Shown here piece after piece: positions 7,703-30,385 of a stretch of DNA of 35,527 nt (position 1 is the stretch's first letter; each line of letters starts with the position of its first letter). Under the pieces are notes generated by a model that was given only the letters and a program-made list of their open reading frames with translations, did not search any database and was not told the DNA's origin. A program made the translations under genes and the position numbers. This stretch comes from a virus (lineage: Duplodnaviria > Heunggongvirae > Uroviricota > Caudoviricetes): IMG/VR virus record IMGVR_UViG_2654587540_000003; one strand, written 5' to 3'.

Positions 7703-8644
7703 ATGAGCACTAAATTAACCGGCTATGTATGGGATGGTTGCGCAGCGTCAGGCATGAAATTATCCAGCGTGGCAATTATGGCCCGCCTGGCTGATTTCAG
7801 TAATGACGAAGGTGTGTGCTGGCCATCAATTGAAACCATTGCCCGCCAGATTGGCGCGGGGATGAGTACCGTCAGAACGGCTATCGCACGGCTGGAAGCA
7901 GAAGGCTGGTTAACGCGTAAGGCGCGTCGCCAGGGTAACCGCAATGCGTCGAATGTTTATCAGCTTAACGTTGCGAAGCTTCAGGCAGCGGCATTTTCTC
8001 AACTGTCAGATTCTGACCCGTCAAAATCTGACGCATCAAAATCTGACCCGTCAAAATTTGATGCGTCGAAATCTGGCAAAAAAGCGGGTTTTCACCCGTC
8101 AGAATCTGGCGGGGATCCGTCAGTAAAATCAAAACATGATCCGTCAGATAAAAAACCTTCTCGTCCGGACGCTTCGCAACCGGACACGCAGACGGCTGAA
8201 CAGGATTTTTTAACTCGCCATCCTGATGCGGTTGTATTCAGCCCTAAAAAACGCCAGTGGGGGACGCAGGATGATTTGACCTGCGCACAGTGGCTCTGGA
8301 AAAAAATCATCGCCCTGTACGAGCAGGCTGCCGAATGTGACGGCGAGGTGGTTCGTCCCAAAGAACCGAACTGGACAGCCTGGGCAAACGAAATTCGCCT
8401 GATGTGTGTGCAGGATGGTCGTACTCACAAACAAATCTGCGAGATGTACAGCCGCGTCAGCCGCGATCCGTTCTGGTGCCGTAACGTGCTCAGCCCGTCG
8501 AAGCTGCGGGAAAAATGGGATGAGCTTTCCCTGCGCTTATCGCCGTCCGTCAGCACATACACAGAAAAACGTGAAGATCCGTACTTCAAATCCAGTTACG
8601 ACAACGTGGACTACAGCCAGATCCCGGCAGGATTCAGGGGGTGA
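7703..8644 (+). CDS. Replication initiator protein (lambda O-like; N-terminal helix-turn-helix, internal iteron-encoded linker)
   Basis: N-terminal winged-helix-like domain. Central low-complexity repeats (SDSDPSKSDASKSDPSKFDASKS) are encoded by tandem 15-bp DNA repeats. Confidence 0.7.
   Translation: MSTKLTGYVWDGCAASGMKLSSVAIMARLADFSNDEGVCWPSIETIARQIGAGMSTVRTAIARLEAEGWLTRKARRQGNRNASNVYQLNVAKLQAAAFSQLSDSDPSKSDASKSDPSKFDASKSGKKAGFHPSESGGDPSVKSKHDPSDKKPSRPDASQPDTQTAEQDFLTRHPDAVVFSPKKRQWGTQDDLTCAQWLWKKIIALYEQAAECDGEVVRPKEPNWTAWANEIRLMCVQDGRTHKQICEMYSRVSRDPFWCRNVLSPSKLREKWDELSLRLSPSVSTYTEKREDPYFKSSYDNVDYSQIPAGFRG
8003..8155 (+). repeat. Iteron array (putative phage origin) inside the initiator gene: tandem about 15-bp units TCTGACCCGTCAAAA with degenerate copies, ending in an A-rich tract
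   Basis: Units at 8012-8026, 8027-8041, 8042-8056, 8057-8071, then spaced copies of CCGTCAG through 8146, then AAAAAA. Confidence 0.55.
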
Positions 8645-9135
8645 TCATGAGTCTTTTGAATGAAGTTCAGAAATTCATTGAAGCCCATCCGGGGTGTACT
8701 TCCGGAGACATTGCGGATGCTTTTGCAGGTTACTCACGGCAGCGCGTTCTGCAGTCAGCAAGCAAGTTACGTCAGAGTGGGCGTGTGGCTCACCGTTGTG
8801 AAGGAGATACACGCAGACATTTCTCGCGCCTGACTGAGAGAGCGCAGGAGCCGGAACCACAACCAGTTCGTGAAACCAGACCTGTGCGCAAGTTCTATGT
8901 CGGCACTAACGACCCCCGGGTGATTTTGTGCCTGACCCGCCAGGCTGAAGAACTGGAGTCGAGGGGCTTATACCGTCGTGCTGCAACGGTGTGGATGGCG
9001 GCATTCCGTGAAAGCCACTCCCAGCCAGAACGAAACAATTTTCTGGCGCGTCGTGAACGGTGTTTACGGAAAAGCAGTAAGCGGGCTGCATCAGGTGAAG
9101 AGTGGTATCTCTCAGGGAATTACGTGGGGGCTTAA
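8641..9135 (+). CDS. PerC-family-like regulator (tentative)
   Basis: C-terminal segment AEELESRGLYRRAATVWMAAF resembles PerC/Pch prophage regulators. Translationally coupled to its neighbours. Confidence 0.35.
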   Translation: MIMSLLNEVQKFIEAHPGCTSGDIADAFAGYSRQRVLQSASKLRQSGRVAHRCEGDTRRHFSRLTERAQEPEPQPVRETRPVRKFYVGTNDPRVILCLTRQAEELESRGLYRRAATVWMAAFRESHSQPERNNFLARRERCLRKSSKRAASGEEWYLSGNYVGA

Positions 9136-9788
9136 TGAGTAATAAATATTGCCAGGCGCTGGCGGAACTGCGGAACAAACCAGCCCATGAACTGAAGGAA
9201 GTGGGCGATCAGTGGCGCACGCCGGACAACATTTTCTGGGGAATTAACACCCTGTTTGGCCCGTTTGTTCTGGATCTGTTCACTGACGGTGATAACGCCA
9301 AATGTGCTGCGTATTACACGGCGGAAGACAACGCGCTGGCGCATGACTGGTCAGAACGCCTTGCGGAGCTTAAAGGTGCTGCCTTTGGTAATCCCCCATA
9401 CAGCCGCGCCAGTCAGCATGAGGGGCAATACATCACCGGCATGCGTTACATCATGAAGCATGCCAGTGCCATGCGTGATAAAGGCGGGCGCTATGTTTTC
9501 CTGATCAAAGCTGCCACCAGCGAAGTGTGGTGGCCGGAAGATGCAGATCATATTGCTTTTATTCGCGGGCGTATTGGTTTTGAACTGCCTGCCTGGTTTA
9601 TCCCGAAGGATGAGAAGCAGGTGCCGACAGGCGCTTTCTTCGCTGGTGCTATTGCTGTTTTCGACAAGACCTGGAAGGGACCGGCAATCAGCTACATCGG
9701 GCGCGATGAACTTGAGGCATGTGGTGAGGCCTTTCTGGCGCAGGTTCGCCAGCAGGCAGAAAAACTGGTCAGGGAGATGGCGGCATGA
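9135..9788 (+). CDS. Phage N6-adenine DNA methyltransferase (Dam-like, orphan)
   Basis: NPPY motif (AFGNPPYSRA) in the translation from MSNKYCQALAEL. Start overlaps the upstream stop (TAATG). Confidence 0.75.
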   Translation: MSNKYCQALAELRNKPAHELKEVGDQWRTPDNIFWGINTLFGPFVLDLFTDGDNAKCAAYYTAEDNALAHDWSERLAELKGAAFGNPPYSRASQHEGQYITGMRYIMKHASAMRDKGGRYVFLIKAATSEVWWPEDADHIAFIRGRIGFELPAWFIPKDEKQVPTGAFFAGAIAVFDKTWKGPAISYIGRDELEACGEAFLAQVRQQAEKLVREMAA

Positions 9789-10111
9789 CGACGTTAACTC
9801 AATGCCAGCAGCAGGTGCTGGATATGCTGATTTCTTATCAGAAAGAACGTGGCTTCCCGCCAACCAATCAGGAGGTGGCAACCATGCTGGGATACCGTTC
9901 AGTGAATGCAGCGGTGGAGCATCTTCGCGCACTGGAGAAAAAAGGCGTCATCACGATAAAGCGTGGCGTGGCCCGGGGCATCACGCTTCATACCGCGGTG
10001 AAGGACGACGACAGCGAGGCGGTCGGGATTATCCGCGCACTGCTTGCCGGTGAGGCAAACGCCAGGCTGCGTGCAGCCCACTGGTTACATGAGAGGGGCC
10101 TGAAAGTATGA
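9785..10111 (+). CDS. LexA-N-terminal-like DNA-binding protein (winged helix only, no peptidase domain)
   Basis: QQQVLDMLISYQKERGFPPTNQEVATMLGYRSVNAAVEHLRALEKKGVI resembles the LexA DNA-binding domain. Confidence 0.5.
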   Translation: MTTLTQCQQQVLDMLISYQKERGFPPTNQEVATMLGYRSVNAAVEHLRALEKKGVITIKRGVARGITLHTAVKDDDSEAVGIIRALLAGEANARLRAAHWLHERGLKV

Positions 10112-10497
10112 AGCTAATACTGCCTTTTCCGCCCAGCGTGAACACGTACTGGCGACACCCCAACAAAGGGGCGCTTGCAGGTAAGAGCCTGATAAGCGCG
10201 GCGGGGCGAAAATTCCAGAGCGCAGCGTGTGCAGCCATCATTGAGCAGTTACGTCGTTTGCCGAAACCAACGTCGGCACCAGCTTCAGTGGAGATCGTGT
10301 TGTTTCCTCCGGATAACCGGCTTCGCGATCTGGACAACTATAACAAGGCGCTGTTTGACGCCCTGACCCACGCGGGTGTGTGGGTGGACGACAGCCAGGT
10401 GAAAAGAATGCTGGTGGAGTGGGGGCCGGTTATCCCGGAAGGGAAGGTCGAAATCACTATCAGTAAGTACGAGAAAACGGCGGGTGCAGCCGCCTGA
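10108..10497 (+). CDS. rusA: RusA-family Holliday junction resolvase
   Basis: MKLILPFPPSVNTYWR...DLDNYNKALFDALTHAGVWVDDSQV is characteristic of RusA. Confidence 0.85.
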   Translation: MKLILPFPPSVNTYWRHPNKGALAGKSLISAAGRKFQSAACAAIIEQLRRLPKPTSAPASVEIVLFPPDNRLRDLDNYNKALFDALTHAGVWVDDSQVKRMLVEWGPVIPEGKVEITISKYEKTAGAAA

Positions 10498-22293: not shown

Positions 22294-22303
22294 NNNNNNN
22301 NNN
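22294..22303. other. Run of 10 ambiguous bases (assembly gap)
   Basis: Literal N characters in the sequence between the capsid and connector genes. Confidence 0.95.
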
Positions 22304-26398: not shown

Positions 26399-26547
26399 CG
26401 GCTGAATACCTCACTGATCGCTTCTTTGACTGCGCCAGCTACTGGCGCATTAATCCTTTCGAATTGCTGAATATGCCGATCAGTGAAATTCCCTTACTGG
26501 TCAGTCAGGCAAACAGGATAGAGCAGGAGAAACGCACACATGGCTGA
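26380..26547 (+). other. Programmed -1 frameshift site (T_TTT_TTC at 26380-26386) and -1 frame extension of the chaperone, open to the tape measure start
   Basis: Slippery heptamer in the zero frame. The -1 frame is open for 162 nt across the apparent gap and stops at 26545-26547, overlapping the tape measure ATG. Confidence 0.5.
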
Positions 26548-28372
26548 ATTTGAGCTTAAGGCGTTGATCACCGGTGTCGACAGGCTTTCTCCCGCGCTGT
26601 CGAAAATGCAAAAGAAAATCCGGGGATTTAAACGCCAGGCGGAAGAAGCGTCACAGGGTGGGCTGGCGCTTGGTGGCGGATTGGCTGCGGGGCTGACGCT
26701 TTCCCTGAAATCTTATGCAGATCAGGAAAACGCCGCCACCGGGCTGAAAGTCGCCATGATGGATGCGAACGGCGAGGTTGGAAAGAGCTTTCAGGACATC
26801 AATAAACTGGCTATTGGCCTGGGTAACCAGCTACCCGGTACAACGGCTGATTTCCAGAACATGATGCAGATGCTGGTGCGTCAGGGGATCCCGGCAGAAA
26901 ACATTCTTGGCGGGGTGGGTAAAGCGACTGCTTATCTTGCGGTACAACTGAAAAAAACACCGGAAGCGGCTGCTGAGTTTGCCGCAAAGATGCAGGATGC
27001 TACCGGAACGGCGTCAGAAGACATGATGGGGCTGTTCGACACTATCCAGAAGGCGTTTTATCTGGGCGTGGACGATACCAACATGTTGTCATTCTTCACT
27101 AAAACCAGCTCTGTTCTGAAGATGGTGAACAAGGACGGTCTTCAGGCTGCACAGAGCCTTGCCCCCATCAGCGTCATGATGGATCAGATGGGGATGAACG
27201 GGGAGGCGGCAGGTAATGCCCTGCGAAAAGTTATCCAGTCCGGATTAAGTGTTAAGAAAATCAGGGACGTCAATAAAGTCATGGCCCGCCAGAAACTCGG
27301 GGTACAGCTCGATTTTACTGACGGCAAAGGAAGTTTTGGCGGTCTTGATAACATGTTTAAGCAACTGGCAAAGTTGCGAAAACTGACTGACGTTAAGCGA
27401 ACTAATGTACTTAAGGCAATATTTGGTGATGATGCCGAAACCATTCAGGTGGTCAATGCGCTGATCGATAAAGGAAAGGATGGTTACGATCAGATCCAGC
27501 AGAAGATGAATAAACAGGCCAGCCTGAATAAACGTGTTCAGGCACAGCTTGGTACGTTGTCCAACCTGTGGGAGGCAATGACGGGGACCGCAACTAACGG
27601 CCTTGCAGCTATTGGCGGCGCATTTTCTGGTGACGCTAAAAATATCACGCAATGGCTGGGGGAGTTGGGGGAGAAATTCACGAAGTTTGCGGATCAAAAT
27701 CCCCGGGTTATTCGCGGCGTCGTCGGGCTTGCTGCCGGTCTTGCGATTCTGAAACTGGGATTGATGGGCGTGGGCAGTGCCATCAGTATCGTCAGCAGGA
27801 TCATGTCGATGACGCCGATTGGCATGATTGCGACGGCGATTGCCCTAGCTGCGGGATTAATTATCACTAACTGGGATGTTGTTGGACCTTATTTCAAGAA
27901 GCTCTGGGAAACCATTGGTCCTTATTTTGAGGCTGGCTGGGAACTCCTTAAGAAAGTTTTTGCCTGGTCGCCGCTGGGGATGGTGATCAATAACTGGGGA
28001 CCGGTTGTTAAGTGGTTTCAGGATATGTGGGACAAGCTGAAGCCAATTATTGAGTGGTTTACTGACAGTTCCGGTGACACGGTCGATGCCATTAACTCTG
28101 CGCAGTGGGGCGCAGGTGCCTATGATGCTTATGGGACGGGAATACCGGCGCGGGGATACACACCTTATCCGGCGGTGGATCCGGCGCAGTCAAACAACGC
28201 CTCCGGTGCCACAGGCCCGAATCCCTTCATGATAAACAAAGCTTCTGCGCCAAAAGTTGATGGTGAGATCAAGGTATCTTTTGTGAATATGCCACCAGGT
28301 ATGCGGGTTATGGAAACGCGATCCAGCGGTATTGATGTCAGCCATGATGTTGGCTATACGCGGTTCAGGTAG
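26540..28372 (+). CDS. Tail tape measure protein
   Basis: 610-aa ORF with alpha-helical N-terminal part and C-terminal hydrophobic Gly/Ala-rich segments. Confidence 0.8.
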   Translation: MAEFELKALITGVDRLSPALSKMQKKIRGFKRQAEEASQGGLALGGGLAAGLTLSLKSYADQENAATGLKVAMMDANGEVGKSFQDINKLAIGLGNQLPGTTADFQNMMQMLVRQGIPAENILGGVGKATAYLAVQLKKTPEAAAEFAAKMQDATGTASEDMMGLFDTIQKAFYLGVDDTNMLSFFTKTSSVLKMVNKDGLQAAQSLAPISVMMDQMGMNGEAAGNALRKVIQSGLSVKKIRDVNKVMARQKLGVQLDFTDGKGSFGGLDNMFKQLAKLRKLTDVKRTNVLKAIFGDDAETIQVVNALIDKGKDGYDQIQQKMNKQASLNKRVQAQLGTLSNLWEAMTGTATNGLAAIGGAFSGDAKNITQWLGELGEKFTKFADQNPRVIRGVVGLAAGLAILKLGLMGVGSAISIVSRIMSMTPIGMIATAIALAAGLIITNWDVVGPYFKKLWETIGPYFEAGWELLKKVFAWSPLGMVINNWGPVVKWFQDMWDKLKPIIEWFTDSSGDTVDAINSAQWGAGAYDAYGTGIPARGYTPYPAVDPAQSNNASGATGPNPFMINKASAPKVDGEIKVSFVNMPPGMRVMETRSSGIDVSHDVGYTRFR

Positions 28373-28471
28373 TGTACAAAATGATTAATGTGTTTTTGTC
28401 TGGCATAATTTGGGTTTTCAACTTTAAGCAGTTAATATAATCACTCCTTACAAATGATTGAAGGGATGATT

Positions 28472-28966
28472 ATGCGTATCTTTGTGTTTTTTATATCTGC
28501 ACTTTTATCTTTTAACTTGGCAGCGGAAGAGTGTAAGTTCAGCTTTAATGAGTCAGAATTAATCTCTTCTATAGGTATTGCACCAGTTAAGCAAGAGATA
28601 GTAAAGGATGAAGGAATAACTAAGCGTCAATATGAATTCAGGAGAGAATTGTCTTTTGAAGAAATGCTTGGCGATGATGCTGATGAAAAATATGAGCCGC
28701 AGTTTTATATATCTATTTATAATCCATCATGTCCACAAAAGGTTATTATTTGGTTTTTCAAAGACAATAAAAACACACAAACTTTAAGTAATGAGGTCCT
28801 TGCTGGTAGAGCGTTCAAGTATTTAACTGGTGTTAATGAAAGTATTTTTGAAAATAAAATGAAAAAGTTTTCAAAGGTACAGTCATTTGAATCCTTTGAT
28901 GAGAGGACGGACTCTAAATTTATAAAGAGTGGTAATGTTTATTCCATTGATGTTCAACTCAGATAG
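28472..28966 (+). CDS. Moron: secreted/periplasmic protein of unknown function (about 164 aa, cleavable signal peptide)
   Basis: Very low GC compared with neighbours. Signal peptide MRIFVFFISALLSFNLAA. Own TATAAT -10 element at 28436-28441 and own terminator. Confidence 0.6.
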   Translation: MRIFVFFISALLSFNLAAEECKFSFNESELISSIGIAPVKQEIVKDEGITKRQYEFRRELSFEEMLGDDADEKYEPQFYISIYNPSCPQKVIIWFFKDNKNTQTLSNEVLAGRAFKYLTGVNESIFENKMKKFSKVQSFESFDERTDSKFIKSGNVYSIDVQLR

Positions 28967-28982
28967 TAATTGAAAATATTAG

Positions 28983-29041
28983 AACCCCGCCACATCTTCT
29001 GCGATGTAAATAACTGACAAAGCAGATTTGGCGGGTTTTTT
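28983..29041 (+). terminator. Rho-independent terminator downstream of the moron
   Basis: CCCGCCA...TGGCGGG stem with an extended imperfect stem, followed by TTTTTT. Confidence 0.6.
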
Positions 29042-29056
29042 GTATCCGGAGTTTAT

Positions 29057-30385
29057 ATGACGTGGAAAGACAGGCTTCAGGATGCGTCATTTCGCGGCGT
29101 ACCGTTTAAGGTTGAAGAAGAAAGTGCGGGAACCGGTCGCCGTGTGGAAACACACGAATATCCGAACCGCGACAAGCCCTATACCGAAGATCTGGGAAAA
29201 GTCACTTTCCGCCCGTCCATCACAGCTTATGTGGTGGGAGATGACTGCTTTGACCAGCGCGATCGCCTGATTGACGCGCTGAATAAACCCGGTCCCGGCA
29301 CGCTTGTCCACCCGACATATGGTGAGCTGAAAGTCTGTGTTGACGGGGAAGTTCGGGTCAGCACATCGAAAAGTGAAGGGCGTATTGTCCGCTTTGACCT
29401 GAAGTTTGTCGAAGCGGGAGAACTCTCTTACCCCACATCAGGTGCGGCGACGGCGCAGACGCTGATGTCATCCTGTTCTGCACTGGATGACTGCATCAGT
29501 GACAGCTTCAGCGGTTTCAGTATCGATGGTGTGGCGGATTTCGTGCAGAACGACGTTATCGGTAATGCCAGCATAATGCTGGGGTATGTTTCTGATGCGA
29601 TGAAAGTGGTGGATTCTGCCGTATCGGATGCCGCCAGGCTGTTGCAGGGGGATATCTCGGTACTTCTGCCGCCGCCATCGTCAGGCAAAAATTTCGTTGA
29701 GCAGGTGCAGAAAATGTGGCGTACCGGGAAACGCCTTTATGGTAACGCCAGCGACCTGGTCACCATGATCAAAACGCTTTCCGGTGTCAGCCTCGGCAGC
29801 GATCTGCAACCGCGCGGCATCTGGAAAACGGACAGTAAAACCACCGCTACGGCGACGCAGCAGCGTAACGTGGTTGCCAGCATCCTTCGTACGACCGCAA
29901 TCAGCGAAGCGGCGTATGCCGTCACCCGATTGCCTGCGCCAACAACTTCTGCGGTGATGCAGAATGCCGCAGTGGGGCAGGCAACAACACCTGCGCAGAG
30001 CACTGGCTGGCCTTCCGTCACGCATCCGGCACTGAACAATGCACCGGCGGTGAAAAACACGGTTGACCTGCCGACGTGGGAAGAACTGACTGACATTCGC
30101 GACACACTGAATACGGCAATTGATAAGGAGTTGTCCCGTACAACCAGTGATGCGCTGTTTCTGGCGCTGCGCCGGGTGAAAGCAGATCTGAATGCGGATA
30201 TCAACACGCGCCTTGAACAGTCTGCACGGATCATTCAGCGCACGCCGGATGAGGTTTTACCCGCGCTGGTGCTGGCGGCGACCTGGTTTGATAACGCGGC
30301 GCGTGACGCGGACATTATCCGGCGTAATGCCATTACGCATCCCGGCTTTGTGCCGGTGATCCCTCTGAAGGTGCCAGTGCAATGA
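29057..30385 (+). CDS. DNA circulation protein (Mu gpN-like)
   Basis: N-terminal region (MTWKDRLQDASFRGVPF...HEYPNRD) typical of this family. GGAG ribosome-binding site. Confidence 0.7.
   Translation: MTWKDRLQDASFRGVPFKVEEESAGTGRRVETHEYPNRDKPYTEDLGKVTFRPSITAYVVGDDCFDQRDRLIDALNKPGPGTLVHPTYGELKVCVDGEVRVSTSKSEGRIVRFDLKFVEAGELSYPTSGAATAQTLMSSCSALDDCISDSFSGFSIDGVADFVQNDVIGNASIMLGYVSDAMKVVDSAVSDAARLLQGDISVLLPPPSSGKNFVEQVQKMWRTGKRLYGNASDLVTMIKTLSGVSLGSDLQPRGIWKTDSKTTATATQQRNVVASILRTTAISEAAYAVTRLPAPTTSAVMQNAAVGQATTPAQSTGWPSVTHPALNNAPAVKNTVDLPTWEELTDIRDTLNTAIDKELSRTTSDALFLALRRVKADLNADINTRLEQSARIIQRTPDEVLPALVLAATWFDNAARDADIIRRNAITHPGFVPVIPLKVPVQ

Follow-up and report, generated by a model that had tools for sequence, protein, structure and literature searches.

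An AT-rich gene for a predicted exported accessory protein at the tape-measure/N junction of SfV-type prophages

The IMG/VR virus record IMGVR_UViG_2654587540_000003 (Caudoviricetes), here called the window, is a 35,527-nt stretch of DNA. It comes from a temperate phage or prophage of E. coli that is of the SfV type and combines lambdoid regulation with a contractile tail of the Mu type. In its tail operon, 684 nt lie between the stop codon of the tape-measure gene and a gene resembling N of phage Mu (gene N), compared with only ~45 nt in SfV, SfI and SfII, whose flanks are ~97% identical. The additional DNA carries an AT-rich open reading frame (ORF), here called the cargo gene, and raises the question of what such a gene does in the middle of a tail operon. 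An earlier reading of the window (the original prediction) described it as a moron with its own promoter and terminator, expressed from the lysogen and encoding a secreted protein that might resemble the receptor-blocking proteins Cor and Llp. We find that it is very probably an accessory gene whose product is exported and forms no part of the tail, and we tentatively suggest a function in phage exclusion. Beyond that first reading, the analysis revealed deep co-inheritance of the gene with the tail module, a terminator that mimics that of a moron and belongs to the operon backbone, and a hotspot that is occupied by three different cargo genes.

The 164-amino-acid ORF that had been predicted between two tail genes was found at 28472..28966 on the plus strand (164 codons plus stop), between the tape-measure gene and gene N, and is supported by PHROG 8976, RefSeq and the ratio of nonsynonymous to synonymous substitution rates (dN/dS). 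The open frame spans 28454-28966 (170 amino acids), with in-frame upstream ATGs at 28454 and 28466, corresponding to proteins of 170 and 166 amino acids. The ATG at 28472 is the likely start, because it is preceded by the Shine-Dalgarno sequence GAAGGGA (28460-28466) and because RefSeq annotates the same 164-amino-acid form (WP_001219113.1). The exact protein of the window is WP_044501842.1.

The AT-rich codon usage noted at the outset is pronounced. The G+C content (GC) of the ORF is 0.323, and its G+C content at third codon positions (GC3) is 0.285, compared with 0.516 and 0.571 for the tape-measure gene and 0.561 and 0.607 for gene N. Genes around the ORF range from 0.52 to 0.58 in GC and from 0.57 to 0.64 in GC3, and the lowest 600-nt GC bin of the window (0.37) extends over the upstream spacer and the 5' two-thirds of the ORF. 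In 8/8 lineages examined, GC3 of the cargo gene is below that of both neighbors (0.27-0.41 versus 0.43-0.64), with locus L058 being marginal (0.48). The bias persists even in L060 (0.30 versus 0.58), where the gene is coupled to the operon, and although synonymous sites are saturated between lineages, the low GC3 is retained alongside GC-rich tail genes. Our guess is that the AT-richness is kept by selection, for example through H-NS-mediated control or low translation.

Among close alleles, dN/dS of the cargo gene is 0.12-0.23, compared with 0.01-0.09 for the sheath, tape-measure and P genes and 0.16-0.25 for gene N, and the frame is intact at 164-169 amino acids across divergence to 36% identity. 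The cargo gene encodes a real protein under purifying selection, with constraint weaker than that on sheath, tape measure and P, and similar to that on N.

The protein begins with a predicted signal peptide (MRIFVFFISALLSFNLAA; 28472..28525, plus strand) with a predicted signal peptidase I (SPase I) cut after A18 and no lipobox. This assignment was made with sequence rules for the n-, h- and c-regions, and not with a dedicated predictor. The N-terminus consists of M-R, 14 hydrophobic residues, L-A-A and then E-E-C, and the cleavage region reads N-L-A-A/E-E-C. All 35 distinct family proteins keep the basic residue 2, a small residue at position -1 and the hydrophobic core, whose hydropathy over 10 residues is 2.4-3.4; the -1 residue is nearly always Ala, with Ser in L050, and the -3 residue is mostly small or aliphatic. 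Conservation of this three-region pattern in the homologs bears out the earlier claim of a cleavable signal peptide without a lipobox. The SPase I-type site is followed in all lineages by a conserved Cys at +3 (+2 in the Yersinia lineage). A lipoprotein was considered and rejected, as no lineage contains a conserved lipobox, and a Cys found in the hydrophobic core of a few homologs is stray and not conserved. We infer from these features that the protein would be exported by the Sec pathway and freed into the periplasm by SPase I.

The mature domain (28526..28963, plus strand) comprises 146 amino acids, with an isoelectric point of 5.1, a mass of 17.1 kDa and a predicted alpha/beta fold. Two Cys residues, C21 and C87 in precursor numbering, are conserved, with C87 being invariant and located 65-66 residues after the first Cys; judging from this pattern, the two probably form a disulfide. 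An AlphaFold2 model built from a nine-sequence alignment had a predicted local distance difference test score (pLDDT) of 89.6 and a predicted template modeling score (pTM) of 0.84. It shows a globular mature part in which a pair of beta-hairpins is combined with two long helices and a C-terminal sheet of three strands; conservation is highest in the two helices (LAGRAFKYLTG ... IFENK).

A full-length match was obtained to PHROG 8976 (residues 1-164 of the 164-position profile, E=2.2e-104), a family without an assigned function. This was the only family match, in agreement with the original prediction, which had recognized no family for the protein. No match was found in Pfam, NCBIfam or PADLOC, and Pfam was also empty for 13 family members. 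Searches of PDB by sequence, using the single protein and the profile, gave chance-level matches only, and a Foldseek search of the model against PDB returned nothing at E<=1e-3. Structure prediction and profile searching, which had been proposed as checks, therefore yielded a confident model with no solved relative. In the BFVD collection, a neighbor of 180 amino acids (A0A8S5RVB8; TM-score 0.66, 14% identity) was automatically named 'ABC transporter periplasmic binding protein', a label that is not credible at that size.

The family is small, with 11 clusters in 5.8 billion proteins and 12 genuine representatives in 1.84 billion, and all members are named 'hypothetical'. An exhaustive search with the profile hidden Markov model also returned a 1766-amino-acid repeat protein (P0024), which was rejected as an artifact of summed repeats. 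Hosts of family members include Escherichia, Shigella, Salmonella, Kosakonia, Atlantibacter and at least seven Yersinia species, and the gene is also present in Pantoea phage AH07; a scan of a genome collection with one genome per species matched only Atlantibacter. In a literature search, neither the accession nor the slot nor the family was the subject of any paper found. The family is thus catalogued as PHROG 8976 but uncharacterized, and accessory envelope proteins encoded in the tail operons of prophages are already a known kind.

The cargo gene resides in a single slot. Among 60 IMG/VR loci, 59 include the upstream flank, and all 59 hold the gene between the tape-measure gene and gene N. 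The same slot is occupied in Escherichia phage SKA5, in AH07, and in metagenome and genome contigs, and no copy outside it was found among the 1.84 billion representative proteins. Identity of the cargo protein ranges from 99% down to 36%, compared with lower limits of 56-59% for the tape measure and 54-57% for N. Over 66 lineage pairs, cargo distance correlates with the distances of sheath, tape measure, N and P (Spearman 0.75-0.83) at least as strongly as those of the structural genes correlate with each other (0.64-0.74). This co-divergence spans Escherichia, Salmonella, Kosakonia, Atlantibacter, Yersinia and Pantoea. Recent horizontal import was considered and rejected, since the cargo gene co-diverges with the tail module. 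It is also the fastest-evolving gene of the module, with a mean distance of 0.51 compared with 0.19-0.36 for the structural genes. Fast evolution of this kind within a module is common for proteins engaged in conflict.

To place the slot in a wider context, complete E. coli genomes were surveyed. The tape-measure/N junction is present in ~1,094 of 5,426 genomes (~20%), and 84-85 of these ~1,094 (~8%) carry the cargo gene. In a sample drawn from across the ranking, an empty site with a span of 663 bp was the state seen most often, and on this basis most sites not occupied by this gene or by the two described next appear to be empty. A further ~175 genomes carry in the slot an unrelated, AT-rich gene for a 176-amino-acid signal-anchor protein of no known family (WP_000679480.1; in locus L074, NZ_CP023386, E. 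coli, at 1892-2422 on the plus strand), with copies at least 99% identical, four of them on plasmids, and with its own variant of a hairpin and T-run following the gene. This protein was considered as a diverged member of the cargo family, and rejected (HHalign probability 2.8%). Another 54-79 genomes carry, on the opposite strand, a gene for a 148-amino-acid protein that combines a transmembrane segment at the N-terminus with a tRNA_anti-like oligonucleotide/oligosaccharide-binding fold (WP_000734912.1, PF12869; in locus L073, NZ_LR882990, E. coli, at 1832-2278 on the minus strand), and in this locus gene N is not preceded by the hairpin. Since this gene is antisense to the tail operon, it must have its own promoter.

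The three slot genes are all AT-rich (GC3 0.28-0.34), and all encode N-terminal export or anchor segments. The tape-measure/N junction is therefore a hotspot for at least three unrelated envelope-protein genes, and the envelope proteins in the other two cases fit an envelope-directed accessory role for the cargo protein. For prophage annotation, this junction of SfV-type prophages can be treated as a hotspot of envelope cargo.

Other insertions were seen in the same module. In L058, an ORF similar to ClpP-family serine proteases (PF00574, E=2.7e-11; 7543-8094, minus strand) lies between the terminator that follows the cargo gene and gene N. A second cargo site lies between N and P, where ~1.8 kb of extra DNA is present in L009 (7980-9778) and L050 (~5270-7200); the insert in L009, from Atlantibacter, encodes proteins of 506 and 93 amino acids, with no Pfam match. 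L063, a contig of Yersinia type, contains an N-like gene in tandem (7546-8877 and 9065-10396), either a real duplication or an assembly artifact.

The cargo gene is followed by an intrinsic-terminator-like hairpin at 28986..29041 on the plus strand. The stem CCCGCCA/TGGCGGG pairs 28986-28992 with 29029-29035 around a structured loop of 36 nt, and is followed by a run of six T residues at 29036-29041 (-24.2 kcal/mol, z = -2.8). Comparison of 15 sequences with or without the cargo gene, representing Escherichia/Shigella, Atlantibacter, Yersinia, Pantoea and unassigned lineages and including the gene-less SfV and SfII, revealed a common hairpin, ACCC[G/A]C-NNNN-G[C/T]GGG with T6-T8, at a fixed distance from the Shine-Dalgarno sequence of gene N; one form of it is ACCCGC-TTCG-GCGGG-T7, and in locus L002 the hairpin lies at 2483-2521. 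All stem positions pair in every sequence, with compensatory double changes in two of the six pairs, and 0/500 shuffles reached the observed covariation. The hairpin of the window shares this core stem, with one additional pair and the loop expanded to 36 nt. The SfII record annotates the hairpin as a putative rho-independent terminator, and Rfam contained nothing in the region.

The presence of the hairpin in gene-less phages, together with the compensatory changes, indicates that the terminator belongs to the tail-operon backbone and is not the cargo gene's own. The terminator of the original prediction was thus correctly located, as a hairpin and T-run do follow the gene, but its ownership was not, as SfV and SfII have it too. 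A promoter plus a terminator is accordingly not automatic proof of an autonomous moron when the terminator after the cargo is part of the tail operon. Inside the operon, the terminator may set the expression ratio of sheath, tube and tape measure to the baseplate, or may insulate the cargo gene. A near-identical prophage in E. coli K-15KW01 adjoins dusA, and encodes a Q-type antiterminator 5' of the lysis and late genes. Antiterminators of this family have been described (PMC3851460), and with one encoded in the prophage, late transcription can, as its gene content suggests, read through the terminator.

As for transcription into the cargo gene, the upstream spacer (28373..28471, plus strand; 99 nt, GC 0.29) contains candidate sigma-70 elements and the ribosome-binding site. 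An extended -10-like sequence, TGgCATAAT, is located at 28401-28409 (plus strand) and a TATAAT at 28436-28441 (plus strand), ranking 8th and 2nd, respectively, by position weight matrix (PWM) score among 35,497 plus-strand positions in the window. The first ~25 nt of the spacer are similar to the short spacer of SfV and SfII. Spacers of 61-133 nt with promoter-like boxes are present in the Escherichia lineages. The upstream spacers of different lineages share no homology, and the single significant promoter match was in L053 (P=0.014). In L058, L060, the Yersinia lineage (L062-L072) and AH07, the stop codon of the tape-measure gene is followed by the start of the cargo gene after only 10-17 nt, which contain nothing but a Shine-Dalgarno sequence. 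Such a gap leaves no room for an intergenic promoter, so that, barring a promoter within the tape-measure gene, the cargo gene there would have to be transcribed as part of the late tail operon. The Escherichia-type spacer may supply a weak promoter and thereby allow expression from the prophage.

We hypothesize that the cargo protein serves phage exclusion at the envelope-crossing or DNA-injection step, an assignment by analogy to which we give a probability of roughly 40%. According to this hypothesis, the soluble protein, after Sec export and release by SPase I, would act in the periplasm. Its target there would be either the tip and tape-measure machinery of an arriving contractile tail or a periplasmic factor of the host on which that machinery depends, and binding would protect the producing cell from other phages. 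The protein would be expressed with the late tail operon in the Yersinia lineage, AH07, L058 and L060, and possibly also from the prophage in the Escherichia lineages.

The closest precedent is gp15 of HK97, the product of a moron in the tail operon beside the tape-measure gene, which blocks genome injection (PMC3594210, reviewing Cumby et al. 2012); exclusion by gp15 and by Ltp is overcome by changes in the tape measure (PMC10883804). With the cargo gene it shares extra DNA of deviant GC in the tail operon beside the tape-measure gene, a non-structural, envelope-targeted product and a terminator downstream, and its tail- and tape-measure-dependent block of entry is the mechanism proposed here for the cargo protein. 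The two proteins differ in kind. gp15 is a small, horizontally acquired inner-membrane relative of YebO, whereas the cargo protein consists of a signal peptide and a 146-amino-acid soluble domain, and has no chromosomal relatives. It is not a single-pass membrane protein of the YebO type, and the only homologs found are phage and prophage copies in this slot. The cargo gene also differs from the gp15 gene in lying at the opposite end of the tape-measure gene, in the setting of a contractile Mu-type tail, with a backbone terminator, a candidate promoter and co-divergence with the module.

A second precedent is Spackle (gp61.3) of T4, which resides in the periplasm and binds the spike of the incoming tail (PMC7677548, PMC7650644). 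Like Spackle, the cargo protein is small, with a Sec signal peptide and a soluble domain (by prediction for the cargo protein), and Spackle is expressed during infection and not from a prophage, as the cargo gene would be in its operon-coupled lineages. Spackle acts on the tail tip of incoming contractile-tailed phages, where it targets the tail lysozyme, but is the product of an early gene and not of a tail-operon gene. No fold relation was found: the crystal structure of Spackle is published (PMC7677548), and the alpha/beta model of the cargo protein had no match in PDB.

The analogy to Cor and Llp did not survive. Cor (phi80, N15 and HK022) and Llp (T5) are outer-membrane lipoproteins that plug the FhuA receptor (PMC9586334, PMC3594210). 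They resemble the cargo protein as envelope-localized accessory proteins of phages encoded in or near tail genes, and they protect against superinfection. Their defining features are absent here: the cargo protein lacks a lipobox, has no fold match among solved structures, and is encoded next to the tape-measure gene and gene N, whereas the genes for Cor and Llp adjoin receptor-binding genes.

Several results weigh against exclusion at the injection step. No functional homology was detected in Pfam, NCBIfam, PADLOC, PDB sequences or PDB folds. The dN/dS of ~0.2 indicates purifying and not diversifying selection, and the same type of tape measure occurs with and without the cargo gene, so that no specific partner is indicated. 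A target like that of Spackle is not obvious, as Pfam identified no tail-associated muralytic domain in the neighboring genes. The remaining points concern expression. The PWM score of the spacer was matched by 10.5% of AT-matched shuffles of the spacer (P=0.105), and a built-in sigma-70 scan found no promoter upstream of the ORF. Expression in the lysogen, which classical exclusion by a prophage would need, therefore does not appear to be conserved, judging from the spacers.

These results also bear on the autonomy claimed in the original prediction. Its promoter can be traced to the TATAAT at 28436-28441, whose spacer context is not exceptional (P~0.1) and is not conserved, with no intergenic room in four lineage groups. 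The architecture from which expression in the lysogen had been predicted is likewise not conserved, the gene being coupled to the operon in the Yersinia lineage, L058, L060 and AH07. As a moron in the sense of Juhala and Hendrix (summarized in PMC3594210), the cargo gene qualifies as extra DNA of deviant composition with a non-structural product, but the terminator is not its own, and horizontal spread is not supported.

If the protein does block entry, it would represent a new family, apparently with a new fold, among the few periplasmic exclusion proteins, and it would provide a handle on how contractile tails of the Mu/SfV type cross the periplasm, which is poorly understood. A more far-reaching version is doubtful: the protein would define a new periplasmic anti-injection class with a new fold, long co-evolved with the tape measure and baseplate hub of Mu/SfV tails, expressed late ancestrally, closing an infected cell to further phages, and later from the prophage in Escherichia-type lineages by way of a promoter-bearing AT-rich spacer, and the junction, insulated by the conserved internal terminator, would be a dedicated hotspot of envelope-acting defense cargo like those of P2 and P4.

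The alternative that fares best, though we regard it as rather unlikely, is a helper of the lytic cycle, expressed only with the late tail genes and without a role in the lysogen. Such a protein could, like T5 Llp, prevent the loss of progeny to dying cells or cell debris, or could tune the breakdown of the envelope; in its action it overlaps with entry block at the periplasm, and only the timing differs. The 10-17-nt gap with nothing but a Shine-Dalgarno sequence in the Yersinia lineage, L058, L060 and AH07 is what this alternative would lead one to expect. The cargo gene lies upstream of the operon's internal terminator, in the abundantly transcribed segment for sheath, tube and tape measure, and its long co-inheritance with the tail module points the same way. 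T5 Llp provides a precedent for the protection of progeny (PMC9586334). The gene is, however, dispensable, being absent from SfV, SfI, SfII and most E. coli prophages that have the module. Its persistently low GC3 and the other occupants of the slot, one of them antisense, suggest an accessory and not a core lytic role, and the spacers with promoter-like boxes acquired by the Escherichia lineages also speak against it.

Unlikely, too, is a role that has nothing to do with phages, in which the protein, made by the prophage, would be a factor of lysogenic conversion or fitness that protects or adapts the bacterium, for instance against colicins, type VI effectors, lysozyme-like host factors or envelope stress. 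Parallels exist in Bor, Lom and the prophage-encoded SodC, and moron products are known to have diverse host-benefit roles (PMC3594210). An exported product of an AT-rich accessory gene, with candidate promoter elements in the Escherichia lineage, would suit such a function, as would the presence of the gene in ~8% of junction-bearing E. coli, the pattern expected of optional cargo. The single slot and the co-divergence are unexpected for such a factor, because host-benefit genes usually move between phage types and chromosomal sites. In addition, the gene is operon-coupled without room for a promoter in some lineages, and the model has no similarity to solved folds, including those of any lysozyme inhibitors or immunity proteins among them.

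A structural or assembly component of the tail, mistaken for cargo, is very improbable. The fixed position in the tail operon in every lineage and the co-divergence with tail genes would be natural for such a component, but tails assemble in the cytoplasm, whereas this product is marked by a cleavable signal peptide and by two conserved Cys residues. The gene is missing from plaque-forming relatives with near-identical tails, and its absence from SfV, SfI and SfII, which have functional tails, points to a non-structural product. Homology to a structural tail component, named in the original prediction as a possible refutation, was looked for in the tail families of Pfam and PHROGs, and none was found. 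Finally, a decaying or spurious frame in AT-rich junk DNA, which the odd composition and the lack of a known family might suggest, is effectively refuted by the purifying selection, the intact frame and the confident model.

The order of genes near the cargo gene is sheath, tube, tail chaperone, tape measure, cargo gene, Mu N-like gene and GpP-type hub gene, the last with a GpP match in Pfam. The 5' neighbor, the tape-measure gene of the backbone, lies at 26540..28372 on the plus strand (PF10145 PhageMin_Tail, E=1.3e-26), and is 98-100% identical in phage SKA5 and E. coli prophages. SKA5 is the nearest cultured relative of the window, and contains the same ORF with a DNA identity of 94.7%. The 3' neighbor, also of the backbone, is the Mu gpN-like gene for DNA circularization/baseplate at 29057..30385 on the plus strand (PF07157 DNA_circ_N, E=2.9e-34), preceded by its Shine-Dalgarno sequence CCGGAG at 29046-29051 (plus strand). 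The fiber genes are located at ~34 kb, away from the cargo gene.

Two further observations concern the rest of the window. A run of 10 N at 22294-22303, in the head-gene region, indicates that the window derives from a scaffolded or masked assembly. The top plus-strand sigma-70-like score of the whole window is at 6512 (plus strand), in the intergenic region of two divergent ORFs, one on the minus strand (5800-6453) and one on the plus strand that begins at 6774, and this site looks like an early promoter of the immunity region.

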